Source: Dehalococcoidia bacterium (GTDB lineage: Bacteria; Chloroflexota; Dehalococcoidia; UBA2979). From it: a stretch of DNA of 64,000 nucleotides. Location of the stretch: the NCBI GenBank assembly GCA_964291495.2, contig OZ219871.1:896001-960000 (forward strand), given 5' to 3'. This document shows positions 2,979 through 61,760 of this stretch, one piece after another. Below the pieces are notes generated by a model. That model searched no databases, had not been told where the DNA came from, and saw nothing but the letters and a program-made list of their open reading frames with translations. The position numbers and the translations under genes were made by a program. Position 1 is the stretch's first letter. Every line of letters begins with the position of its first letter.

Positions 2979-3410
2979 ATGGCCTTCTTCGAGGACCGCG
3001 ATTGGGACACCGTGTCCGAGGGCTCCAGCCTGCAGCCGCTGGAGTTCGGCCCGATCACCATGACCACCCAGGTCATGGACGCCTCGGGCACGCGCGACCT
3101 CTACCCGATCCACCACGACCGGGAGTTCGCGAAGGCGAACGGCGCGCGCGACATCTTCCTCAACACGATGTGGTACCAGGGCCTGCTCGGCCGCTTCGTC
3201 AACGAGTGGGGCGGGCCGGAGTCCTTCATCCGCAAGCTCAGCTTCGACATGCGCGCGACGAACTGCCCGGGCGACCTGCTGACCGTGCGCGGCACGGTCA
3301 CGAAGAAGTACGAGCAGGAGGGCCAGAAGCTGGTCGACCTGGACGTGCGAATCGACAACCAGATCCAGCCCGACACCGTGACCGCGCGGATCACGCTTGA
3401 GCTCGTCTAG
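2979..3410 (+). CDS. MaoC-like (R)-hydratase subunit
   Basis: DLYPIHHDREFA hydratase motif; AAGGAG RBS. Confidence 0.85.
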   Translation: MAFFEDRDWDTVSEGSSLQPLEFGPITMTTQVMDASGTRDLYPIHHDREFAKANGARDIFLNTMWYQGLLGRFVNEWGGPESFIRKLSFDMRATNCPGDLLTVRGTVTKKYEQEGQKLVDLDVRIDNQIQPDTVTARITLELV

Positions 3411-44523: not shown

Positions 44524-45056
44524 CCTCCGGTCCCCTCTCCCCGAGGGAGAGGGAGCCGGACGGGAGCGGGGACCGGAGGGGCGCACCGGACGTCCGAGGC
44601 CGGATCCGGTCCCCTCTCCCCCGGAGGGAGAGGGTTAGGGTGAGGGGGAGGCGGGCGCAGCCCGCCCCCGAGGGCACAACGAGCCTTTCGAGGACGGCGA
44701 CGTCGAATCCCCCTCACCCCCCGCCCTCCCCCGCCAGGGGGGAGGGAGCCGGATCCGGACCCCCTCACCCCCCGCCCTCTCCCGCGAGGGGAGAGGGAGC
44801 CGGAACCGGACCCCCTCACCCCCCGCCCTCCCCCGCCAGGGGGGAGGGAGCCGGATCCGGACCCCCTCACCCCCCGCCCTCTCCCGCGAGGGGAGAGGGA
44901 GCCGGAACCGGACCCCCTCACCCCCCGCCCTCCCCCGCCAGGGGGGAGGGAGCCGGATCCGGACCCTCTCACCCCCGCCCTCCCCCGCCGCAAGGGGGAG
45001 GGAGCCGGACTCCGGTCCCCTCTCCCCCGGCGGGAGAGGGTTAGGGTGAGGGGGAG
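44524..45056. repeat. Repeat cluster 2, including a 51-bp tandem array (six units from 44709)
   Basis: Units start at 44709, 44760, 44811, 44862, 44913 and 44964. Confidence 0.95.
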
Positions 45057-45406
45057 TCCGGAGCTGACTCGCGTAGCGCCAGCGCGATCGCCTCCAGCAC
45101 GGAGGTCGGACGCAGCAGCACATCGTCGTTCCAGAATCTCAGGACCGTGTAGCCGCGCGACTCCAGCCACCGCGTTCGCCGAGCGTCGTATGCCCGGCGG
45201 TCGGCGTGTTGCCCACCGTCCAGCTCGACGATCAGCTTCCGCTCGTGACTGACGAAGTCGGTGATGTACGGGCCGATCGGGGCCTGGCGGCGGAACCTGA
45301 CGCCTCCGAGGCGGCGATCCCTGAGCCTCGACCAGAGGGCTTGCTCAGCGTCCGTGGAATCCCGCCTGAGGCGCCGCGCCCTGGCCTTCGACCGGTCGTC
45401 CGCCAT
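45041..45406 (-). CDS. DUF559 (Vsr-like) endonuclease
   Basis: ARRLRRDSTDAEQALWSRLR, FRRQAPIGPYITDF, VELDGGQH, DARRT..LE..GY.VLRFWN; stop codon lies inside the repeat. Confidence 0.93.
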   Translation of the reverse strand: MADDRSKARARRLRRDSTDAEQALWSRLRDRRLGGVRFRRQAPIGPYITDFVSHERKLIVELDGGQHADRRAYDARRTRWLESRGYTVLRFWNDDVLLRPTSVLEAIALALRESAPDSPSP

Positions 45407-45476
45407 CGTCTGCCCTCGCTGTCCGATCCCCTCGCGAGGGTAGCCCCTGCCCTCGTTGGCCGCGCTGTCGCGCGGC

Positions 45477-45850
45477 TCCCCCTCACCCCCCACCCTCTCC
45501 CGCGAGGGGAGAGGGAGCCGGATTCCGATCCCTTGCCTCCGGTCCCCTCTCCCCCGGCGGGAGAGGGTTAGGGTGAGGGGGAGGCGGGCGCAGCCCGCCC
45601 TCGAGGGCACAACGAGCCTTTCGAGGACGGCGACGTCGGATCCCCCTCACCCCCCGCCCTCCCCCGCCAGGGGGGAGGGAGCCGGATTCCGATCCCTTGC
45701 CTCCGGTCCCCTCTCCCCCGGCGGGAGAGGGTTAGGGTGAGGGGGAGGCGGGCGCAGCCCGCCCCCGAGGGCGCAACGAGCCTTTCGAGGACGGCGACGT
45801 CGGATCCCCCTCACCCCCCCTCTCCCCCAGGAGAGGGGGCCGGATCCGGA
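45477..45850. repeat. Repeat cluster 3, with a 164-bp direct duplication
   Basis: GGTCCCCTCT.. at 45541 and 45705; a near-identical block at about 44607-44755. Confidence 0.95.
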
Positions 45851-51006: not shown

Positions 51007-51105
51007 GGTTCCAGCTCCCTCGCAGGGTCGCGTCGAGCGTAGCGCTCCGCGCCCCGCCGGACCCTGACCCATCGAGGGCAGCGCAGCGCTGTCTGCCTGT
51101 CTTGG

Positions 51106-52125
51106 GCCCCTCCGGTCCCCTCTCCCCGAGGGAGAGGGTTAGGGTGAGGGAGGATCCCGGCGGGTGGCAGGTGAGGGAGGATCCGCCCTCTGGAGTTCCG
51201 TTGCGCCCTCGGGCGTTCTTGCCCGGCGGGCGCCGGACGAGCGCGCTGCGCGGCTCGGCTGGATTCCGGCTTTCGCCGGAATGACGGGGAGAGGGAGCCG
51301 GAATGACGGGGAGAGGGAGCCGGAATGACGGGCGCCCTCGTCCGGCCCCTCTCCTGGGGGAGAGGGAGTGCTTCGTGGGGGGAGACCCCCCACACCCCCG
51401 CGGGTGAGGGGGCTCGCCCGGCCGTCGCGATCCTCGAAGGGTTGGTGCGCCCTCGGGGCGGGCTGCGCCCGCCTCCCCCTCACCCTCCGCCCTCTCCCGC
51501 CGGGGGAGAGGGGACCGGATCCGGCTCCCTTTCCGTCATTCCGGCGAATGCCGGAATCCAGGCTCGGCAGACACGCGAGCGCCCTCGGAAGGTTGTTGCG
51601 CCCTCGAGGGCGGGCTGCGCCCGACTCCCTCTCACCCCCGCCCTCTCCCGCCGGGGGAGAGGGGACCGGATCCGGCTCCCTTTCCGTCATTCCGGCGAAC
51701 GCCGGAATCCAGGCTCGGCAGACACGCGAGCGCCCTCGGAAGGTTGTTGCGCCCTCGAGGGCGGGCTGCGCCCGACTCCCTCTCACCCCCGCCCTCTCCC
51801 GCGGGGGGAGAGGGAGCCGGACCGGCCCTCGGAAGGTTCGTGCGCCCTCGGGCTGGCGCGCCGGCGGCGCGCTCCCCCTCACCCTCCGCCCTCTCCCGCC
51901 GGGGGAGAGGGGACCGGACCGGCCCTCGGAAGCTCTGTGCGCCCTCGGGAGCTCCGGGTGGGGGTGTGGGGGCGTGGCCCCCACGAAGGGGGGCGCGGGG
52001 CGCAGCCCCGCTGCCGTTGAGGGCGGGTGGGTGGGGCGAGCCGCGCGCCGCGCGCGCGCTCTGTCCGGCGTGCGCCTCCCTCACCCTCCGCCCTCTCCCT
52101 CGGGGGGAGGGGACCGGAGCCGGCC
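51106..52125. repeat. Repeat cluster 5 (~1 kb), with a 151-bp tandem duplication
   Basis: AGGTTGTTGCGCCC at 51590 and 51741; all module types present. Confidence 0.92.
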
Positions 52126-52149
52126 TCGGCACGTGGTGACATGGGCGGC

Positions 52150-52181
52150 TTGACGCGTCCTTGGCACATCTGTTCTAGTAC
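52150..52181 (+). promoter_or_regulatory. Candidate promoter with LexA-box-like site
   Basis: TTGACG at 52150; GCAC-ATCT-GTTC at 52164-52175; no clean -10 at 17-bp spacing. Confidence 0.35.
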
Positions 52182-52320
52182 GCGCCGCCGGGACGCCCTC
52201 GCGTCTCCCCTGCACGCGGAGGGCGTCCCGGCAGCGGGCGAGGCGGGAGGAGGCGCGAGGCGCGATGAACGCCGGAACGGGTTCGGGACACCACAGGCAG
52301 GGCGGAACGGAAGGAACGCA

Positions 52321-52620
52321 GTGTCGATCTTCTCGGGGCTCGCGATTGCGGGCGAGCTGGCGACCGCGGGAAGCGGAGCGGCGAACGCCGCCTGGTTCGC
52401 GCATCGCGCCGCTGCTGCGGCGGGGCCGCGGCGCCTCGCGGCGTTGCTGCTGATGCTGCTCTTCGGCGCGGTGGCGCTGGACGCGGCGGCGCACGTGCTG
52501 CCCGGGGCGCCCTCGTGGCCCTCGCTGCAGGGCGCGCTGCTGCGGCTGCCGCTGCTGGCGGCGAACGTGCTGGCCGGGATCGCGATCCTCGCGGGCCCGC
52601 GCCGGGAGCGCGCGCAGTGA
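52321..52620 (+). CDS. Small membrane protein (about three TM helices)
   Basis: GTG after AAGGA; hydrophobic; GTGA overlap with the next gene. Confidence 0.6.
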   Translation: MSIFSGLAIAGELATAGSGAANAAWFAHRAAAAAGPRRLAALLLMLLFGAVALDAAAHVLPGAPSWPSLQGALLRLPLLAANVLAGIAILAGPRRERAQ

Positions 52621-52784
52621 GCCCCGGGGCCGGCCCGCTCGCACTCGCGCTGCACGAGGAGCGCTACGAGGCCGCCGCGCTGCGGCTCGCGCTCGGCGTC
52701 CTCGCGGCGCTCGCGCGGGCGGCGGAGTCGGCGCCCGGCACGCGCGAGGAGCTGATCGCGCTGCTCGCCTCGGAGGGCGCGTGA
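52617..52784 (+). CDS. Small hypothetical protein
   Basis: GTGA overlaps at both ends; host-like codons. Confidence 0.55.
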   Translation: MSPGAGPLALALHEERYEAAALRLALGVLAALARAAESAPGTREELIALLASEGA

Positions 52785-53116
52785 GCGCAGTTGCGTCCGG
52801 AGGAGCCGGGGCGGCCGCCCGGGAGGGCTTCTACGAGTCGGCGCTGGCTGCGGCGGACGCCGCGGCGCTGCGCGAGGCGCGGACGTTGTCCGGCCTCGAC
52901 GACGAGGTTGCGCTGCTGCGGGTGCAGCTGCGGCGCGCCTTCGCGGACGCGGAGGCGGACCCGCGCACGGTGCAGGCGGGCGTGCGGCTGCTGGTGCAGG
53001 CGCTGCTCGCGCAGCACCGCCTCTCGCCGCAGCAGGCGGAGCACCTCGGCGAGGCCGTCGCGAACGTCCTCGAGGAGTTCGGCGAGGTGCTGGGCGCGGC
53101 CGGGGCGGCGGCGTGA
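52781..53116 (+). CDS. Helical protein, candidate small terminase subunit
   Basis: GFYESAL...GLDDEVALLRVQLRR; size and position upstream of terL. Confidence 0.55.
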   Translation: MSAVASGGAGAAAREGFYESALAAADAAALREARTLSGLDDEVALLRVQLRRAFADAEADPRTVQAGVRLLVQALLAQHRLSPQQAEHLGEAVANVLEEFGEVLGAAGAAA

Positions 53117-53117
53117 G

Positions 53118-53380
53118 CCTCCGAGGGCGCAACAACCGATCGAGGCGGCAGCCCCGCCGGCGAGCCTGGATTCCGGCTTCCGCCGGAATGACGGGAAGGG
53201 AGGCCGGAATGACGGGGAAGGGACCCTCCGGCCCCCTCTCCTGGGGGAGAGGGTTGGGGTGAGGGGGCTCGCCGGCCGGACTGCCGGCTCGAAGGGTTGT
53301 TTGCCCTCGGGGGTTGGGTGCGGCGGGCTGCGCCCGCCCTCCCTCACCCTCCGCCCTCTCCCTCGGGGAGAGGGGACCGG
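53118..53380. repeat. Repeat cluster 6, inside the packaging operon
   Basis: Same modules as clusters 1-5. Confidence 0.9.
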
Positions 53381-53416
53381 AAGGGACATGGAACGAAGCC
53401 GATGGAGGTAGCGGAG

Positions 53417-53650
53417 ATGGAGCGAGTGGAGACGGACCAGACGGAAGGCGCCGGCGAGCGGCTGGCGCTGGTGTTGCGGCGCATCGCGGGCGTCGAGACG
53501 CGCGACCGGCCGCCGGAGCACGACCTGCGCGCGCGCATCGACTACCTCGAGCGCGACGCCGGGGAGATGCGGATGCGGGTCAACGGCCTCTTCTTCGGCC
53601 TGATCGCGCTCGCCGCCGGCGAGATCCTGCTGCGGGCCCTGGCCGGATGA
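53417..53650 (+). CDS. Small coiled-coil protein with C-terminal TM helix
   Basis: RIDYLERDAGEMRMRVNGLFFGLIAL; GGAGGT RBS; ATGA overlap with terL. Confidence 0.6.
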   Translation: MERVETDQTEGAGERLALVLRRIAGVETRDRPPEHDLRARIDYLERDAGEMRMRVNGLFFGLIALAAGEILLRALAG

Positions 53651-55122
53651 GCGCGACGACAACGCTGGACGCGCCCGCATCCGTACCCGCCGAGACGGGG
53701 CCGCCCTCGGAAGGCGCGAGCGGGCTGCCGCGACTGCGGCCCTACCAGGCCGCGGTCGCGCGCGCCGTCCTCGAGCGCGTGTTGGGCGGCGAGGGCGGCT
53801 CGATCTCGGTGCAGATCGCGCGCCAGGGCGGCAAGAACGAGCTCTCGGCGCAGCTCGAGCTGGTGCTGCTGCTGACGCGCCAGCGCGCCGGCGGGACGAT
53901 CGTGAAGTGCGCGCCCACCTTCGAGCCGCAGGCCGCGATCTCGCGCGATCGCCTGCTGGCGCGTGCGGACGGCGCGCGCCTCGGGGCGATCGTGCGCCGC
54001 GAGGGCGCGGCGTCGGTGCGCTGCGGTCGCGCCGCCGCGCGCTTCCTCTCGGCGGGGCCGGGCGCCTCGGTGCTGGGTCACACCGCGGACCTGCTGCTGG
54101 AGGTCGACGAGGCGCAGGAGGTGCCGGCCGAGAAGTTCGACCGCGACTTCCGCCCGATGGCCGCCTCGGCCAACGCGCCGGTCGTCTTCTACGGCACGCC
54201 GTGGGGGCCTCGATCGCTGCTGGCGCAGGCCGAGGCCGCGCATCGCGAGGCGGAGCGCGCCGACGGCCGCCGTCGCTGCTTCCGCTTCGACTGGGAGCAG
54301 GTGGCGGCGCACAACCCCTCCTACGGCGCGTACGTGGAGGAGGAGCGGCGGCGGCTCGGTGAGCGCCACCCGCTGTTCCGCACGCAGTACCTGCTGGAGG
54401 AGCTGCACGAGCAGGACCGCCTGCTCGACGGGGCCGCCCTCGCGCAGATCGAGGGCGCGCACGAGCGCGTGCGCACGCCCGTGCGCGGCGAGCGCTACGT
54501 CGCCGGCCTGGATCTCGCCGGACCCGCGTTGGAGGGCGGACGAATAGCGGAACAACACGACTGGACGGTGTTGACGATCGCGCGCGTGCGCGCGGGCAGC
54601 AGGGGCGGAGCCGCCCTGCCGCTGATCGAGGTCGTCGAGCACCAGGCCTGGCAGGGCGCGCCGGCGGGCGAGCTGCTGGACGCGCTGGCGGACCGCCTCG
54701 CGCGCGTCTGGCGCGTGCGCCGCGTCGTCGTCGACGCGACCGGCCTCGGCGGCCCGGTCGCCGATCTGCTGGCGCGGCGCCTGCCCTCGGGGCGGGTCGT
54801 GCCGCTCACGTTCACGGCGGAGCGCAAGTCGCAGCTCGGCTTCGGGCTGCTGGCGGCGGTGCACTCGGGCCGGCTGCGGCTCTATCGCATCGACGGGTCG
54901 CGCGAGGCGGCGGAGTGCCGCGTGCAGCTGGAGCGTGCTCGGGCGGCCTACGGCGAGCGCGGGCAGATGCAGTTCTCCGTGGACCCCTCGGAGGGCCACG
55001 ACGACTACCTGATGAGCCTCGCGCTGGCCGTGCACGCCGCGCGCGACGAGGGCGGAGCGCGCACTGCGCGCGGCCGCACGCCGACCGACGCGATCGAGGC
55101 GGCGACGGCGGTGGCGGCGTGA
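53647..55122 (+). CDS. Phage-type terminase large subunit
   Basis: LRPYQ, Walker A ARQGGKN, Walker B LLEVDEAQ, coupling motif YGTP, nuclease GLDLAG / VVDATGLG / HDD. Confidence 0.88.
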   Translation: MSATTTLDAPASVPAETGPPSEGASGLPRLRPYQAAVARAVLERVLGGEGGSISVQIARQGGKNELSAQLELVLLLTRQRAGGTIVKCAPTFEPQAAISRDRLLARADGARLGAIVRREGAASVRCGRAAARFLSAGPGASVLGHTADLLLEVDEAQEVPAEKFDRDFRPMAASANAPVVFYGTPWGPRSLLAQAEAAHREAERADGRRRCFRFDWEQVAAHNPSYGAYVEEERRRLGERHPLFRTQYLLEELHEQDRLLDGAALAQIEGAHERVRTPVRGERYVAGLDLAGPALEGGRIAEQHDWTVLTIARVRAGSRGGAALPLIEVVEHQAWQGAPAGELLDALADRLARVWRVRRVVVDATGLGGPVADLLARRLPSGRVVPLTFTAERKSQLGFGLLAAVHSGRLRLYRIDGSREAAECRVQLERARAAYGERGQMQFSVDPSEGHDDYLMSLALAVHAARDEGGARTARGRTPTDAIEAATAVAA

Positions 55123-55499
55123 GGGCCTCGGAGGAGCCGCAGCCGGAGCTGGTGCGCGCGGACGCGCTGCCGGAGCAGGTGGAGTACCGGGACCAGGGCT
55201 GCGACCTGTTCCCCTCATGCCTGCGCTGCCCGCTGCCGCGCTGCCGCTACGACGAGCCGGGCGGGGCGCGGGCGATGCTGAATCGCATCCGCGATCGCGA
55301 GATGCGGCGGCTGCGCCGCGAGCACGCACTCCCGGTGGACGAGATCGCGCGCCGCTACCGCGTCTCGCGCCGGACCGTCTTCCGCGCCCTGCAGCACGGC
55401 CCCGCCTCGCGAGGGCGTCGCGGCGCCTCCGGAGGCGCGCACGGTCCTCGCGGCGCACGCCGGGCAGACCACGCCGATCGGAAGGAGATCGAACGATGA
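55119..55499 (+). CDS. Cys4-motif plus HTH protein
   Basis: CDLFPSCLRCPLPRC followed by VDEIARRYRVSRRTVFRAL. Confidence 0.8.
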   Translation: MRASEEPQPELVRADALPEQVEYRDQGCDLFPSCLRCPLPRCRYDEPGGARAMLNRIRDREMRRLRREHALPVDEIARRYRVSRRTVFRALQHGPASRGRRGASGGAHGPRGARRADHADRKEIER

Positions 55500-56722
55500 C
55501 ACAGGCAGCAGTCGCGCCGGCCGGCGCCACCCCGTTCCCTCGCACCCTCGCCCAGCGCGACCGGGAGCGCCTCGCCCGCTACCGCGAGTTCCTCGACTAC
55601 TACGAGGGGCGGCGGGGCGCGGCGCCGGGCGGCCCGCGCGAGCGCTCGCTGAGCTTCAACTACGCGCGCGCCTTCGTGGAGAAGGGCGCCTCCTACCTGA
55701 TGACCTCCCACCGCCCGACCGTGGTCGAGGCGGACGGCGGCAGCACCGCCGAGGCGGAGCAGGCGCTGCTCGAGCTGTGGGAGGCGAACGACCTCGAACG
55801 GCTCGACCTCGAGAGCGAGTTCGACACGGCGACGCTCGGCGACGGCGCGTTCAAGGTGAGCTGGGACGAGCAGGAGCAGCGCGTGGTGGTGAGCGCGCCG
55901 GACGTGCAGGGCCTGTACGTCTGGTGGCTGGGCGACGACGTGCGCCGCATCCGCCGCGTGGCCGCCCGCTACGAAACGCCCTCGGAAGACGCGGAGGCGC
56001 GGACGGGCCGGCTGCCGCGCGGCCCCGGCGGCCGGACGCCCGAGCGCGTCACGCTGACCGAGGTGTGGACGGCGGAGCGCTTCGAGTTGTGGGTGGAGGA
56101 CGAGCCCGTCGAGGCGCGGGCCAACCCGTACGGCGTGATCCCGTTCGTGATCTTCCCCAACACCCCGCGTCCGAAGCAGTTCTGGGGCATCTCCGACATC
56201 GAGCCGCTGCGCGAGTCGATCGTCGAACTGAATCGCGCGATGACCCAGCTGAGCCGCATCCTCGAGCTCTCCGGCAACCCGATCGCCGTCCTCGAGAACG
56301 TCGAGGAGTCACGCGGCATCGCGGTGCAGCCGGGGGCGGTCTGGGAGCTGCCGGAGGAGGCGCGCGCGTACCTCCTCGACCTGCTGCAGGGTGGCGGCGT
56401 GCGGCTGCACGCCGACTACCTCGGGCAGGTGTACCGGACGATGCACGACCTGGCGGAGATGCCGCGTATCGCGTTCGGAGACGGATCGGGCGACCGCTCC
56501 GGCGTCGCGTTGCGGCTGGAGCTGGATCCGCTGCTGCGCAAGGTCGCACGCAAGCGGTTGATCCGCAGCGCTGCGATGCGCAAGCGCGACCGGCTGATGC
56601 TGCGCGTCCTCGCGCACCACACGGGCCGCCGCTTCGAGGGCGTCCGCACCGAGATCGCCTGGTCCGCCATCTTCAGCGGCGACGAGACGGGGCTGCTCGA
56701 GGCGGCGCGAATCGCCTCGTAG
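55496..56722 (+). CDS. Phage portal protein (SPP1 gp6-like)
   Basis: DYYEG, FNYARAFVE, LGDG, NPYGVIPFVIFPN, GISDI, SGVAL; follows terL. Confidence 0.85.
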   Translation: MTQAAVAPAGATPFPRTLAQRDRERLARYREFLDYYEGRRGAAPGGPRERSLSFNYARAFVEKGASYLMTSHRPTVVEADGGSTAEAEQALLELWEANDLERLDLESEFDTATLGDGAFKVSWDEQEQRVVVSAPDVQGLYVWWLGDDVRRIRRVAARYETPSEDAEARTGRLPRGPGGRTPERVTLTEVWTAERFELWVEDEPVEARANPYGVIPFVIFPNTPRPKQFWGISDIEPLRESIVELNRAMTQLSRILELSGNPIAVLENVEESRGIAVQPGAVWELPEEARAYLLDLLQGGGVRLHADYLGQVYRTMHDLAEMPRIAFGDGSGDRSGVALRLELDPLLRKVARKRLIRSAAMRKRDRLMLRVLAHHTGRRFEGVRTEIAWSAIFSGDETGLLEAARIAS

Positions 56723-60138: not shown

Positions 60139-61140
60139 CTAGTAGTGCTCGCGGATGTAGTGGGAAGCGACCACCACGCCGTCCTGGGCGGCCCGGCGGG
60201 CGGCGCCGAGCGCGCGGCCGTTCTCCTCGTCCGCCCGCGCCGCCGCGAGCAGCGTGCGGCCATGCGCGGTCTGGGTGAGGAAGCTGATCACCTGCTGCTT
60301 GGAAACCACGTCGGGCTGCACCTCGAGCTGCTCCGCCACGAGCGCGATCGACTCGGTGATGTCCCGGAGCATCGCCGGATCCACCGGCTGACTGTGGTAG
60401 ACGTCGAAGGCAATCGCCGCGATCAGCGCGTCGATGCGCTCGATCTCCAGCTCGATCATCCGCGCGACGTACTGCGCCTCTTCACCGGGCACGACCGGAC
60501 CGAGATCAACCGGCGGCGGGACCGTCGGCCCGACCCTGCCGCCACCGAACACCTCGATGGCGTCGAGCTGCGGGCCAACCTCGTAGTCCCTGAAGAACCA
60601 GCCCCGGGCCAGGGGGGTCGGCTGCGGGACAAAACCGTCCTCCTGCAAGAGGGGACCGGGCTCCGCCTCAGCAGGGTCCAAGATCCGAACGGGGATCGTG
60701 ACTGTCTCCACCGGCGGGTAGTCCGCGGACGGCTCGACGACCGCGGCGGTCTGCGGCGGCGTCGAGTCCAGCTGCGTGGCGACGACGAACGCGAGCACGA
60801 GCACCGCCGCCGCCGCCGCGCTGAAGACGGGCGTCAGGACGTTCCAGCGGAAGATGAAGAACGGCTTCGGCTCCTCGCGAGGCGCGCTGTCGTCGACCTG
60901 CTGCGCCCGGCGCCTCGCCCCGAGGCGGTTCAGTACGTAGGTTCGCGAGCGCTCACGGTAGGACTCGAAGCGTGGCGAGCGGGTGGCGGCCTGCTCCGTG
61001 TCGTACAGCTCGGCCGCGAGCGCCGCGAGTGAGAAGAGGGTGGGATCCTCGCGCGGGTCGAGGTCCGGCTCCGCCAGCGCCTCGATCGCGTCGAGGGCCT
61101 GGGCGAATCGTTCGGCCTCCACCATCTCGAAGTCGGTCAT
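60139..61140 (-). CDS. Membrane-anchored putative anti-sigma factor
   Basis: Overlaps the ECF sigma stop (ATGA); single central TM helix. Confidence 0.65.
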   Translation of the reverse strand: MTDFEMVEAERFAQALDAIEALAEPDLDPREDPTLFSLAALAAELYDTEQAATRSPRFESYRERSRTYVLNRLGARRRAQQVDDSAPREEPKPFFIFRWNVLTPVFSAAAAAVLVLAFVVATQLDSTPPQTAAVVEPSADYPPVETVTIPVRILDPAEAEPGPLLQEDGFVPQPTPLARGWFFRDYEVGPQLDAIEVFGGGRVGPTVPPPVDLGPVVPGEEAQYVARMIELEIERIDALIAAIAFDVYHSQPVDPAMLRDITESIALVAEQLEVQPDVVSKQQVISFLTQTAHGRTLLAAARADEENGRALGAARRAAQDGVVVASHYIREHY

Positions 61141-61760
61141 GACTTCCTCGCCTCGCGGATCCCGGACGGTTCGGCAAGCAGTTCACGCAGGCGCTGCACG
61201 CCCTTGTGCTGCAAGACCTTCACGTTCGGCACGTGCTTCCCGAGCGCTTCCGCCGTCTCCCTGACGGAGAGGCCGGATGCGAAGCGCAGCAGGATCACGT
61301 CGCGCTGCGCTTCCGGAAGTTCTCGCACCGCCCGGAACACCTCCTCGATCGTCAGCTTCGTTTCTGTCAGCTCCTGAGGGCCGCGGCCCTCATCGCGGAG
61401 ACGCTCGGCGACGAGGTCGGAGAACTCCGCCCGCCGCGGTCGCGCCGCCGCCCGGCGCTGGAACGATGCCACCTCGTTGCGGGCGATGCGGAAGATCCAC
61501 GCCCCGAAGGGGATGCGCTGGCCCTCCGCGCCCGGCCGCCACTCGAAGCGGTCGATCGCTCCCAGGACCTTGACGAAGATCTCTTCCGTCAGATCCTCGG
61601 CCTCGGTCTCGTCGCCGACGCGGGTGAGGCAGTAGCGATACAGCCTCGCCACGTAGGCGTCGTAGAGGCGGCCCATCGCCTCGTTCTCACCTGCCTTGGC
61701 GCGGTCGACGAGCGACCGCTCCTCTTCAGGCGAGAGACCGAACAGTGGTGGAGTTGACAT
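61137..61760 (-). CDS. ECF RNA polymerase sigma-70 factor
   Basis: AEDLTEEIF, WIFRIARN, LPEAQRDVILLRF..GLS..ETA. Confidence 0.93.
   Translation of the reverse strand: MSTPPLFGLSPEEERSLVDRAKAGENEAMGRLYDAYVARLYRYCLTRVGDETEAEDLTEEIFVKVLGAIDRFEWRPGAEGQRIPFGAWIFRIARNEVASFQRRAAARPRRAEFSDLVAERLRDEGRGPQELTETKLTIEEVFRAVRELPEAQRDVILLRFASGLSVRETAEALGKHVPNVKVLQHKGVQRLRELLAEPSGIREARKS

Follow-up and report, generated by a model that had tools for sequence, protein, structure and literature searches.

A terminase–portal operon in a Dehalococcoidia genome as the packaging half of a candidate domesticated, gene transfer agent-like particle system

Why should a bacterial chromosome carry an operon for a phage-type terminase and portal protein outside any recognisable prophage? 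The operon lies in the window, the whole stretch of 64,000 nucleotides of Dehalococcoidia DNA (contig OZ219871.1) that was analysed. Our preferred answer, to which we assign a probability of roughly 0.55, is that it forms the packaging half of a nine-gene phage-derived kit, a vertically inherited, domesticated particle system resembling gene transfer agents (GTAs). That the module is phage-derived, vertically inherited and selectively maintained is much the firmer part of this reading and we consider it highly probable. Whether it is a GTA in the strict sense is evenly balanced. There is no evidence of particles, packaged DNA or transfer.

The packaging operon and its surroundings

51100..52140, no strand: dispersed short repeats (REP/MITE-like), upstream intergenic, bounding the operon and outside the machine
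52321-56722, + strand: terminase–portal operon, 7 co-oriented ORFs
52321..52620, + strand: g1, 99-aa membrane protein, GTG start after a GGAAGGA Shine-Dalgarno sequence
52617..52784, + strand: g2, 55-aa ORF, 4-nt GTGA overlaps with g1 and g3
52781..53116, + strand: g3, candidate small terminase subunit (TerS), from PHROG matches of its orthologues
53117..53390, no strand: the same dispersed repeat family inserted between g3 and g4, from a repeat search of the genome
53402..53650, + strand: g4, 82-aa ORF, 4-nt overlap with the TerL start
53647..55122, + strand: TerL, large terminase (packaging ATPase and RNaseH-like nuclease), from Terminase_6C and PHROG matches
55119..55499, + strand: Cys4 and helix-turn-helix (HTH) protein between TerL and portal, from an HTH_23 match
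55496..56722, + strand: portal protein (SPP1 gp6-like), from SPP1_portal (1.7e-13) and phrog_64 (1.7e-20)

The seven genes are linked by five 4-nt overlaps, GTGA at 52617, 52781 and 55119 and ATGA at 53647 and 55496, as the original prediction had described. It had also called the composition host-like, and GC3 is indeed 0.88-0.96 in the operon genes versus 0.92 +/- 0.02 in 18 other window genes.

TerL, present in a single copy in this genome, matches Terminase_6C (1.5e-7) and the PHROG TerL families phrog_5909, 5713, 38 and 9. The retention of its ATPase and nuclease motifs, inferred earlier from this one sequence, extends to an alignment of 34 genomes, in which RQxGKN, LLExDE, YGTxW, GxDxxG, DATGxG and GHDD are conserved (with gaps in 1-2 rows and a variant Walker B in two). 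The Walker A motif, RQxGKN, carries Asn where Ser/Thr is usual. The predicted internal regulator is the Cys4-HTH protein, which matches HTH_23 (5e-5) and phrog_836, ‘late transcriptional activator’ (6.5e-6), and is a candidate transcriptional activator of the module. Its C28, C37 and C42 are invariant and C34 nearly so (C-x5-C-x2-C-x4-C), and a helix with the sequence SRRTV.R is conserved.

Constraint was estimated as dN/dS (NG86, close pairs, reference G000), with dS probably underestimated at a GC3 of ~0.95. The portal gene is the most constrained of the set at 0.02-0.12 and is present in 73 of 99 related loci; the HTH gene, in 74 of the 99, gave 0.10-0.32, and TerL 0.20-0.33. For g3 most close pairs fell at 0.05-0.18, with a single pair (L002) at 0.36. 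This gene is conserved directly upstream of TerL across the class (80/99 loci), with the motif FY..AL..AE..GLD.EIALLR, and its orthologues match the PHROG ‘terminase small subunit’ families phrog_1889 (4/23 members, best 4.1e-7), phrog_370 (3/23) and phrog_509 (3/23), none of which is matched by the window copy.

Hydrophobic segments in g1 and g4 agree with the two small membrane proteins noted originally. The 2-3 segments of g1 lie at residues 35-62 and 71-92. This gene has homologues in 24/99 related loci, all close relatives, with dN/dS of 0.11-0.42 and no Pfam or PHROG match; it is a lineage-specific accessory gene, and only speculatively a holin-like release factor. Support for g2 and g4 as genes is weak, because dN/dS climbs to about 1 in more distant pairs. 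The coding status of g2 (26/99 loci, dN/dS 0.35-1.03, no Pfam or PHROG family match) is uncertain, while g4, whose N-terminus is charged and whose C-terminus has a hydrophobic segment at residues 59-82, gave 0.16-0.73 in close pairs and ~1 in distant ones. Other families have a small ORF at the g4 position, for which homology to g4 was not shown.

A dispersed genome-wide repeat makes up the g3–g4 spacer and 1 kb upstream of g1. When 51100-52320 was compared with the genome by blastn, 1145 hits resulted, at 30-180 copies per 40-nt bin as far as ~52140 and with translated motifs recurring in several frames; the spacer gave 463 hits and 36-184 copies per bin. The flanking genes encode secreted or unknown proteins, an S8 protease, an ECF-type sigma factor, a sulfatase and a DUF559 protein, so that their earlier description as envelope genes fits only loosely. 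The reported absence of integrase, structural and lysis genes beside the operon was upheld within the searches made: no integrase family match was found within 100 kb (the nearest is at 107 kb), no tRNA within 15 kb, and no PHROG structural or lysis match in flanking ORFs, only the flanks of the window locus having been scanned.

The head-and-neck locus

The search for a solitary HK97-type capsid locus, proposed originally as a check, was successful:

G000:C5:1,251,529-1,255,903: head-and-neck locus with scaffold, major capsid protein (MCP), adaptor, hub and OB-fold genes, 303 kb from the window operon

It is flanked by ruvB, rimI, clpB and dnaJ and holds the only PF05065 match of the genome. 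The MCP is of HK97/SU10 type (phrog_212 1.4e-71; PF05065; SU10_MCP at 28.3 bits, cut-off 24.1), and the adaptor is of SU10 type (PF24175 1.1e-9; SU10_adaptor at 39.5, cut-off 27). In a model with a pLDDT of 92, the 656-aa protein of this locus joins a beta-propeller to a baseplate hub of the gp27/Mu gp44 type. In Foldseek its C-terminal ~330 residues match the hubs of contractile injection systems, Mu (gp44) and P1 (E 6e-15 to 1e-12, TM to target 0.6-0.7). The neighbouring 68-aa protein is an OB barrel. P2 gpV and Mu gp45 are among its matches, though none of these is strong (E above 0.01) and unrelated OB folds match as well. No tail tube, fibres or tail needle were found, and no nozzle-family match was seen for the 656-aa protein. 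Beyond the propeller domain we identified no tail fibre, receptor-binding function or lysis gene, the last in a PHROG search limited to the flanks of the window locus.

Distribution, descent and selection

In a sample of 201 genomes of the class, TerL was found in 137 and MCP in 119; 116 have both, 21 TerL only, 3 MCP only and 61 neither. TerL is present in 18/18 genomes of the same genus and 21/24 of the same family, and MCP in 17/18 of the genus, mostly as single copies. At least 453 relatives were found among genome contigs; the 80 listed are all titled Dehalococcoidia or Chloroflexota save one record labelled only ‘Bacterium HR24’. Whole families lie among the 64/201 genomes without TerL (f23, 0/11; f24, 0/6; f28, 0/5).

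These counts bear on the other suggestion of the original prediction, a membrane DNA translocase that works without a capsid and consists of TerL, portal and small membrane proteins. Its attractions are the two small hydrophobic proteins of the operon, the absence of a capsid gene within the window and the 21 genomes with TerL but no MCP. However, 116 of the 137 genomes with TerL also have MCP, scaffold, adaptor and hub genes, which lie next to TerL in many families; g1 and g4 occur only in close relatives, and we know of no precedent for a translocase of this kind. The suggestion is thus unsupported and we find it barely credible.

Across families with 41-57% TerL identity the gene order is conserved as TerS-TerL-HTH-portal-[variable]-scaffold-MCP-[0-3 genes]-adaptor-hub-OB, which substantiates, class-wide, the original remark on similar terminase/HTH/portal genes in Dehalococcoidia. 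In one locus (L104) the cluster ends after the OB gene, with an MFS transporter next. The nine genes are contiguous in many families, occupy two loci in several and four in one (f16), where every gene is intact amid housekeeping genes. TerL and MCP are 3-6 kb apart in many families, 12-33 kb in sister genera, and 49-190 kb in families f6 and f27 (~0.6 Mb, circular, in G078 of f27). In this genus the distance reaches 345-783 kb in eight complete or near-complete genomes and ~0.7 Mb (circular) in G013, against 303 kb here. The operon is therefore an ‘orphan’, as it had been called, in this lineage only, since it adjoins capsid genes in many families. Host neighbours are also conserved, with ruvB beside the hub gene in several genera and M48 peptidase neighbours recurring in another family.

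Congruence with the host phylogeny had been proposed as a further check, and a concatenated tree of TerL, portal, MCP, adaptor and hub largely follows RpoB. Six of the seven GTDB families with more than one member are each set apart by a single branch, the exception being f34, which is not monophyletic. The two trees have 17 of 28 splits in common and differ in 11; their RF distance is 22, compared with a shuffled mean of 55 (0/1000 as low), and the Mantel r is 0.65 (0/2000). The genomes were chosen for having both genes, RpoB is a single host marker and tree searches were quick. The kit thus appears to have been passed down with its host across much of the class. Together with the distant capsid locus, the class-wide homologues and the dN/dS values, this supports the original prediction of a packaging machine that is inherited vertically and whose capsid genes lie at another place.

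Could the module nonetheless be a non-functional relic, an ancient prophage fragmented by rearrangement whose pieces are kept by chance and slowly decay? Decay, named beforehand as grounds for refutation, was seen in a minority of cases. TerL is disrupted in 5/18 genomes of the genus: in G009 the N-terminal ATPase half is missing; G014 and G017 are without the C-terminus of TerL and the portal, G014 also lacking the HTH gene, of which a displaced partial match remains in G017 (L033); G011 is probably frameshifted; and G016 has one internal TGA. Single internal stops occur in several class-level matches, and some of these stops may be assembly errors. In genus g55 TerL is kept in 3/3 genomes, but the one locus examined (G070) is a deletion remnant in which a truncated portal stands directly before a truncated hub ORF, scaffold, MCP and adaptor having been lost by deletion. 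The genomes retaining only TerL or MCP or neither, and the repeat inserted within the operon, could be read in the same way.

Against decay by chance, dN/dS is well below 1. It is 0.13-0.27 for MCP, 0.20-0.28 for adaptor, 0.20-0.35 for scaffold and 0.02-0.35 for the core genes overall (apart from the TerS pair L002), at or below two flanking host genes (0.27-0.33 in the closest pairs, up to 0.54 in more distant ones). Between families, MCP identity is still 54-84%, where that of RpoB is 59-86%. Full-length frames are kept open at the four separate loci of f16, the TerL catalytic motifs are conserved across the 34-genome alignment, and the module is retained in genomes of only 0.8-1.5 Mb. We therefore regard the relic as quite improbable.

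An active mobile element, either a common temperate phage or a capsid-forming satellite (cf-PICI-like) of Dehalococcoidia, would account for the 213 IMG/VR contigs that carry the kit capsid gene and are classed as viral, for the 2-5 TerL copies of genus g33, for related MCP, TerL and portal genes in 14/221 other Chloroflexota genomes and for the split family f34. Yet the best 80 of the 213 contigs are short fragments of the same nine-gene module (median length 6.2 kb), and the extra g33 copies are solitary genes among fabD, fabG and nusB. Among isolate phages, the nearest MCP shows 42% identity and the best TerL ~30%. The nearest relatives do not lie inside complete prophages; had they done so, this would have told against the original prediction. 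Neither an integrase nor an att/tRNA site was found near the loci, and genome searches for the tape-measure (PF10145), PF04860 portal and PF03354 TerL families gave no match, and no second prophage was found; these negatives cover no replication or lysis families, the PHROG scan having been confined to the window-locus flanks. Moreover, with genes spread over 2-4 loci hundreds of kb apart and housekeeping genes between, an excising element could not survive, and the agreement with RpoB and the conserved chromosomal neighbours also speak against mobility. An element of this sort is, in our view, highly improbable.

Proposed working and known systems

Under the preferred, GTA-like reading, the host would switch on both loci, probably through the embedded HTH protein. 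Scaffold and capsid protein would assemble into procapsids on the portal, and TerS and TerL would cut DNA and pump it in. Adaptor, hub trimer and OB-fold cap would then close the portal. The result would be a tail that is very short and has no tube, with a propeller domain for binding a recipient cell. The particles would carry host DNA, as GTAs do, and could not propagate the element itself, because its genes are scattered and no integration, replication or att functions were identified with them. Co-expression, particle formation, DNA content, release and delivery are all inferred, in the absence of expression data.

A domesticated particle with another job, in which host-made capsids are filled or empty, is possible though unlikely. 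Such particles might release DNA outside the cell, store or repair it in starvation, act as decoys or competitors against related phages, or serve as propeller-and-hub-tipped killing or adhesion particles. The evidence for vertical inheritance, selection and dispersal fits equally well here, and with a tail of only adaptor, hub and OB cap, for which neither tube nor tape measure nor fibres were found, there is no guarantee of delivery into a recipient cell. On the other hand, the intact TerS-TerL-portal set with its conserved nuclease and ATPase motifs implies packaging of DNA; in every solved system that was matched, a gp27-type hub carrying an OB cap serves to penetrate membranes; and the lectin-like propeller suggests binding to target cells.

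Inheritance of the split kit with its host across the class makes it a candidate new GTA-like system. In the literature searched there was no account of a GTA or of a conserved terminase/capsid module from Dehalococcoidia or Chloroflexi, nor any report of a GTA-like particle system for the phylum Chloroflexota. RcGTA has its parts at several chromosomal loci, a dedicated activator, no integrase or replication genes, and a history of purifying selection. The kit resembles it in being a phage-derived head and packaging set, vertically inherited in a class-level clade under purifying selection, with several loci, no integrase or replication genes identified and a dedicated activator (here a candidate). 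RcGTA-type agents of Alphaproteobacteria (Rhodobacter capsulatus, Caulobacter) are treated in PMC10883770, PMC11841831 and PMC6363796. The kit differs in host phylum, in its SU10-like capsid and adaptor, in having 9 core genes versus ~17, and in a tail of adaptor, propeller-hub and OB cap without a tail tube or tape measure found (PF10145). An independent origin is likely, although no direct sequence comparison was made with RcGTA proteins.

Bartonella BaGTA, Desulfovibrio Dd1, Brachyspira VSH-1 and Methanococcus VTA are independent domestications of tailed-phage structural modules and package host DNA. The kit would share that domesticated character, as judged without sequence comparison, but none of the four comes from Chloroflexota. 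Elements of the GTA type are classified as viriforms (PMC9662315). Polydnavirus-type viriforms of parasitoid wasps (treated in PMC9953437) have viral structural genes dispersed in the host genome. Their scattered but intact genes resemble those of f16, by analogy of architecture only, given a eukaryotic host, an unrelated virus lineage and a known function.

Among phages, SU10 (Kuravirus) is approached by the MCP and adaptor, which pass the SU10 family cut-offs, and by the podovirus-like order portal-scaffold-MCP-adaptor-tail protein. After the adaptor, however, the kit has the hub–propeller fusion, no nozzle-family match and no needle or fibre genes were found, and its MCP is at most 42% identical to that of any isolate phage. 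In Mu/P2-type phages, contractile injection systems and T6SS, baseplate hub and spike are made of a gp44/gpD hub and a gp45/gpV/VgrG OB domain. The C-terminus of the 656-aa protein and the OB barrel of the next gene resemble these. Unlike them the kit has no sheath, tube, wedge or beta-helical needle, its OB protein has only 68 aa, and its hub follows directly after a podovirus-type adaptor.

The packaging operon and its distant capsid locus

The DNA of the window is 71% G+C and genes were therefore called from third-position GC, with the junctions inspected by eye. Seven co-oriented ORFs make up the operon, four of them (g1 to g4) being small and lying upstream of the large terminase gene (TerL).

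Packaging operon in the window
52321-52620, + strand, small ORF g1
52617-52784, + strand, small ORF g2
52781-53116, + strand, g3, read as the small terminase subunit (TerS)
53402-53650, + strand, small ORF g4
53647-55122, + strand, TerL, matching Terminase_6C and four PHROG terminase families
55119-55499, + strand, helix-turn-helix (HTH) protein, resembling a PHROG 'late transcriptional activator' family (6.5e-6)
55496-56722, + strand, portal (SPP1_portal, 1.7e-13; phrog_64, 1.7e-20)

The original prediction had described 4-nt overlaps at five junctions of this operon, and these were confirmed at sequence level, the overlaps being GTGA or ATGA. TerL scores 31.9 bits with the Pfam family Terminase_6C (cut-off 22.6) and satisfies the criteria for a Terminase_6-type large terminase, comprising an N-terminal Walker A/B ATPase and a C-terminal RNaseH-like nuclease; its motifs are kept across 34 aligned genomes. 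The Walker A motif (residues ~58-65) reads RQxGKN in all 34, with Asn replacing the usual Ser/Thr. A Ser or Thr normally follows GK in the canonical P-loop, and judged from the alignment the RQxGKN loop is a family-wide departure from it.

The position of g3 directly upstream of TerL is conserved in 80 of 99 related loci. Among 23 orthologues of g3, 4, 3 and 3 match, respectively, three PHROG families annotated as 'terminase small subunit', with E values down to 4.1e-7. The copy in the window matches none of these families, and in a profile search against PDB sequences no match to g3 was significant (E 0.016 at best). The reading of g3 as TerS is a putative one. The HTH protein carries a C-x5-C-x2-C-x4-C pattern, with three of the cysteines invariant and one nearly so, followed by a conserved helix-turn-helix. 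These cysteines may form a zinc or iron-sulfur site, which could turn the protein into a redox- or metal-sensing switch. Both g1, with two to three hydrophobic segments, and g4, with a single C-terminal one, are restricted to close relatives, and a role for them in release is only a guess. On the basis of dN/dS, g2 and g4 are doubtful as genes. Pfam gave no match for g1-g4, nor for the scaffold, hub or 68-aa proteins described below.

The 1 kb upstream of g1 (51100-52140) and the 270-nt spacer between g3 and g4 (53117-53390) consist of a short G+C-rich dispersed repeat, which has about 100-180 copies genome-wide, for the most part on contigs C5 and C6. The operon itself contains one copy, in the g3-g4 spacer. 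When translated, this repeat yields recurring 'PLSPGGRGRRVRG' and 'IPAFAGMT' peptides in many spurious ORFs.

The operon is flanked by genes for a sulfatase, a DUF559 protein, three proteins without a family, a secreted 456-aa protein, an S8 protease, an ECF-type sigma factor, an HD protein and an M48 peptidase, and none of these flanking genes has a phage structural or lysis match. Three of the neighbours are placed as follows.

Selected genes flanking the operon
45041-45610, - strand, DUF559 gene (Vsr-like endonuclease fold), 7 kb upstream of the operon
60139-61140, possible anti-sigma partner of the ECF-type sigma factor
61137-61760, - strand, ECF-type sigma factor, 4.4 kb downstream of the operon

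The genome of the window (G000; 3.08 Mb in 8 contigs, 93.7% complete) contains one copy of TerL of this type. A solitary HK97 capsid locus elsewhere in the genome, which the original prediction had proposed looking for, is indeed present; the only match to the HK97 capsid family in this genome lies on the same contig as the operon, 303 kb downstream. This second locus (L022; G000 contig C5, 1,244,000-1,263,900) holds five co-oriented genes between rimI and ruvB, with clpB, dnaJ and hsp20 close by. Operon and second locus are both flanked by host genes.

Genes of the second locus
scaffold-like protein, 161 aa, weak PHROG scaffold matches
major capsid protein (MCP), 296 aa, PF05065 (Phage_capsid) 47.1 vs 24.2, PF17236 (SU10_MCP) 28.3 vs 24.1, phrog_212 1.4e-71
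SU10-type adaptor, 201 aa, PF24175 (1.1e-9)
hub protein, 656 aa, assigned from an AlphaFold model and Foldseek
OB-fold (OB) protein, 68 aa, assigned from a predicted structure

By the Pfam gathering-score criterion, which it meets, the MCP is predicted to be an HK97-fold major capsid protein; its fold was not modelled. An AlphaFold model of the hub, built from 28 orthologues (pLDDT 92.2, pTM 0.88), has a beta-propeller as its N-terminal half. The C-terminal ~330 residues are structurally similar to central baseplate hubs, namely those of contractile injection systems, phage Mu gp44, P1, T4 gp27 and VgrG (Foldseek E values from 6e-15 to 1e-9, with TM to target reaching 0.7). A profile search of the hub against PDB sequences found nothing significant, only weak sialidase Asp-box matches (0.03). 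The 68-aa protein is modelled as a five-stranded OB barrel (pLDDT 92.8). Its structure matches are weak (E above 0.01) and include unrelated OB folds as well as P2 gpV and Mu gp45, and hence its position is the main support for reading it as a hub cap.

About 20 nt ahead of the ribosome-binding site of the scaffold gene is a palindrome, TCCGG-N4-CCGGA (~3010-3030, - strand, of the fetched region L123 on G000 contig C5), which is kept in eight close relatives. It is possibly an operator. Upstream of g1 and g4 we saw no clear counterpart that would make it an operator common to the two loci.

Distribution and dispersal of the module

TerL was detected in all 18 genomes of the same genus and in 21 of 24 of the same family, and the capsid gene in 17 of the 18 congeneric genomes, the exception being an assembly of 210 contigs. 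A scan with one genome per species returned at least 453 stretches that encode a relative of TerL, and among the 80 matches listed all are titled Dehalococcoidia or Chloroflexota/Chloroflexi MAGs, bar one record named 'Bacterium HR24'. Across a sample of the class restricted to genomes at least 85% complete (n=201), TerL occurs in 137 genomes and in 89 of 133 genera, and the capsid gene in 119 genomes; 116 genomes have both, 21 TerL only, 3 the capsid only and 61 neither. About one third of the sampled genomes lack the system. Presence tracks clades, being complete in some GTDB families (f6 12/12, f21 11/11, f29 7/7) whereas others have none (f23 0/11, f24 0/6, f28 0/5). The MCP is single-copy and, at 54-84% identity between families, more conserved than TerL (41-72%). 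Several single-contig genomes of the sample, 98-100% complete, have the full set of nine genes.

Beyond the Dehalococcoidia, a capsid relative was found in 14 of the 221 Chloroflexota genomes sampled (47-56% identity). Four such regions were fetched from other classes of the phylum (L280-L283, from genomes G369, G427, G416 and G329). Their capsids are 50-55% identical, with TerL and portal nearby in some and one capsid standing alone, and adaptor and hub were undetected in all four. One genome of the survey, G011, has two capsid copies, one 94% identical and in two pieces on its contig C1, the other intact, 81% identical and on a small contig, which may reflect strain mixing in the bin (contamination 4%) or replacement.

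Gene order was compared over 40 regions from 34 genomes, selected for having both TerL and capsid matches. The conserved order is TerS-(small ORF)-TerL-HTH-portal-[variable]-scaffold-MCP-[0-3 genes]-adaptor-hub-OB. The variable stretch 3' of the portal holds opposite-strand genes of host type, for example those for a methyltransferase and a PD-(D/E)XK nuclease. In several families, two or three additional genes in the same orientation separate MCP from adaptor (L105:9424-10110, with equivalents in regions L103, L106, L054 and L056); the window's family lacks them. One of these genes encodes a protein with a ConA-like lectin domain (Laminin_G_3, 3e-11), possibly a head decoration or a fibre. 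The cluster ends with the OB gene, and in region L104 genes for an MFS transporter and a protease-like protein come next.

The distance between the packaging and capsid genes varies widely.

TerL-MCP distances
Many families: 3-6 kb
Sister genera of the same family: 12-33 kb, with inversion
Genome of the window (G000): 303 kb
Eight complete or near-complete genomes of the window's genus: 345-783 kb
G013, a further genome of that genus: about 0.7 Mb (circular)
Families f6 and f27: 49-190 kb
G078 (f27): about 0.6 Mb (circular)

By these distances, the split into two loci is as old as the genus, with both halves kept since. Dispersal has gone further in family f16, where hub, portal, MCP and TerL were all present in five of five genomes tested. 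In a closed 2.7-Mb genome of this family these genes lie at 1.213 (hub), 1.288 (portal), 1.4006 (MCP) and 1.404 Mb (TerL), each a full-length open frame amid housekeeping genes, and the MCP gene sits between those for a sulfate permease and a diguanylate cyclase. In region L108 (f16 genome G071) this second neighbour is a CHASE-PAS-GGDEF protein and TerL adjoins a gene for a 1730-aa surface protein, with portal and hub 112 and 187 kb away and every gene intact, the module having been dismantled one gene at a time. Genomes of genus g33 have one capsid gene and one to five TerL copies (most 2-5). In one of them, G044, the extra TerL paralogues (L118:9122-10516 and L120:8147-9532) are full-length and ~48-50% identical to the TerL of the window. 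The extra g33 copies are solitary amid yceD, fabD, fabG, nusB and a ubiA-family prenyltransferase gene, and neither a portal nor a capsid gene adjoins them.

Descent, selection and decay

The original prediction had envisaged a vertically inherited packaging machine, with tree congruence and dN/dS as checks, and both came out in its favour. A maximum likelihood tree was built from concatenated TerL, portal, MCP, adaptor and hub of 32 genomes (G212 and G071 were excluded, the portal being missing from the fetched stretch) and compared with one of RpoB, for which 31 of these genomes served, no RpoB match having been found for G034. Six of the seven multi-member GTDB families fall on one side of a branch of the module tree with full support, the seventh (f34) being split. 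The two trees largely agree, having 17 of 28 splits in common and 11 discordant, and their Robinson-Foulds distance of 22 compares with 55 on average, and never less than 50, in 1000 label shuffles. Patristic distances correlate with r = 0.65 (Mantel), a value reached in none of 2000 permutations. The disagreements concern single long rows (families f6, f29, f4 and f34) and deep nodes. Because these were quick searches with one marker and a self-selected genome set, the trees are evidence of broad co-divergence and do not exclude transfers. Within those limits (31 chosen genomes, one marker, quick trees) the module appears to have been inherited vertically, co-diverging with its host.

Pairwise dN/dS (NG86) was calculated against G000 for pairs of 85-99% protein identity, without the hub and 68-aa OB genes.

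Pairwise dN/dS against the genome of the window
Portal: 0.02-0.12
TerS: 0.05-0.18 (one pair 0.36)
HTH: 0.10-0.32
MCP: 0.13-0.27
TerL: 0.20-0.33
Adaptor: 0.20-0.28
Scaffold: 0.20-0.35
Two flanking host genes: 0.27-0.33 in the closest pairs, up to 0.54 in more distant ones

Apart from the single TerS pair, the core genes tested fall between 0.02 and 0.35 and are under purifying selection. The true values are likely lower, as dS is probably underestimated at a GC3 near 0.95. The GC3 of the module genes is 0.88-0.99, compared with 0.92 +/- 0.02 for host genes.

A dead relic is the alternative to which the losses within the class lend some support, together with the third of sampled genomes that lack the system. 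The packaging locus is damaged in 5 of the 18 genomes of the same genus; one lacks the N-terminal half of TerL, one is probably frameshifted, one has an internal TGA, and two lack the TerL C-terminus and the portal, of which one is also without the HTH gene and the other has a displaced partial HTH match. The capsid genes of these five genomes are still intact (93-96% identity). In g55, a genus of small, closed genomes, TerL is present in three of three and a capsid gene was not found in any of the three genomes sampled. In one g55 locus (L117:6676-11203, genome G070) the HTH gene precedes a portal fragment of 188 aa, immediately after which come a hub fragment of 481 aa and the OB gene, with TerS and TerL on the opposite strand; from the sequence of this single locus, the portal-hub junction is an internal deletion remnant. 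Against a relic, however, the nine frames and the catalytic motifs remain constrained across lineages in which RpoB identity is down to 59-86%, and on this ground we consider it unlikely.

Possible gene transfer agent and rival readings

The genomic hallmarks of gene transfer agents (GTAs) are viral structural and packaging genes, vertical descent, purifying selection, no self-propagation, dispersed loci, an embedded regulator and loss in some lineages. Beyond the descent and selection already described, the module brings phage-derived head and packaging genes (TerS, TerL, portal, scaffold, MCP, adaptor and hub) into the host chromosome. Means of self-propagation are also lacking, as far as a search without replication families shows. 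No integrase gene lies near the loci, the three tyrosine-recombinase matches in the genome being on other contigs or 107 kb away. No tRNA gene occurs within 15 kb of the operon (the nearest of the window's three is at 15.7 kb) and the loci are 303 kb apart, or 345-783 kb in relatives of the genus. Neither lysis nor fibre genes were found. Searches of the whole genome for a tape measure (PF10145), a PF04860 portal and a PF03354 terminase gave zero matches; a helper prophage would be expected to show up through a further portal, TerL or tape-measure family of this sort.

Neither a prophage nor a satellite can work as a mobile element with its genes hundreds of kilobases apart. Specifically, an integrated temperate prophage, a contiguous element with integrase/att, lysogeny control, replication, lysis and complete virion genes, is contradicted by the lack, near the loci or in the genome, of an integrase, tRNA/att site, tape measure and second portal or TerL and by the distribution of the genes over distant loci (lysogeny families, like those for replication, were outside the search). 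A capsid-forming satellite of the cf-PICI type, which has an integrase, a replication/primase module and capsid and packaging genes of its own and relies on a helper phage for tails, is contradicted by the lack of a nearby integrase and of any sign of a helper prophage and by the non-contiguous module.

Based on its match to the genomic GTA hallmarks, our reading of the module is that of a domesticated particle system, GTA-like, in which adaptor, propeller-hub and OB cap form a very short tail. This reading is by analogy, as there are no data on particles, packaging of random host DNA, transfer or expression, and its main rival is a domesticated particle serving another use. In its full form, to which we assign a probability of roughly 0.4, the GTA-like reading would make the module an independently evolved GTA of the Dehalococcoidia and the first in Chloroflexota, derived from an ancient SU10-like short-tailed phage that was domesticated and cut to nine genes. 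The delivery end would be a single propeller/gp27-hub fusion, OB-capped and seated directly on the portal adaptor; the genes would remain functional even where they are scattered singly, as in some families, and the system would be a main gene-exchange route of the class.

The module differs from RcGTA-like GTAs, which have a siphovirus-type tail (tube, tape measure, distal tail, hub, megatron) encoded in a head-tail cluster of ~15 kb. Here there is no PF10145 match, no tube gene was seen between adaptor and hub, and the cluster ends after hub and OB; the proteins were not compared directly. In the literature accessible to us, with subscription journals and supplements outside its scope, we found no description of a GTA or of a conserved terminase/capsid module in Dehalococcoidia or Chloroflexota, and on this literature basis the module is probably independently derived and lies outside every described GTA family.

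Other particle types were also considered. An encapsulin-type nanocompartment is ruled out by the presence of TerL and portal, and a tailocin by the presence of a capsid and the absence of both sheath and tube. The IME1 elements of Dehalococcoides lack tailed-phage hallmark proteins according to the abstract of a 2026 preprint, whose text contains neither the word terminase nor the word portal; as far as this source goes, membership of the IME1 budding-virus family is ruled out.

To our knowledge only a handful of independent GTA lineages exist, and mechanistic work has nearly all been on the alphaproteobacterial one. If the GTA-like reading is true, a class-wide, vertically inherited and minimal head-neck-hub system would add a lineage in a phylum poor in genetic tools and cultures. 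The series from contiguous to two-locus to four-locus arrangements would provide natural material on how a host dismantles and absorbs a virus, and the unusually small delivery apparatus would be of interest for structural study. Dehalococcoidia are abundant in subsurface, marine and sponge-associated communities. Gene exchange via the module could, if it occurs, include the genes of organohalide-respiring relatives that have the full set, and virome fractions from Dehalococcoidia-rich habitats may hold host DNA packaged in such particles.

Among 50,697 isolate-phage records, capsid matches number 293, none reaching 60% identity and the best at 42%, and TerL matches number 6, the best being about 30% identical. 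In IMG/VR, 213 contigs have a close capsid relative. The best 80 of these 213 are short (median 6.2 kb, the largest contig 27 kb) and carry the same portal-to-OB genes with nothing more recognisable. By their gene content they look like this module flagged by virus predictors, which would explain why prediction pipelines mark short Dehalococcoidia contigs as viral.
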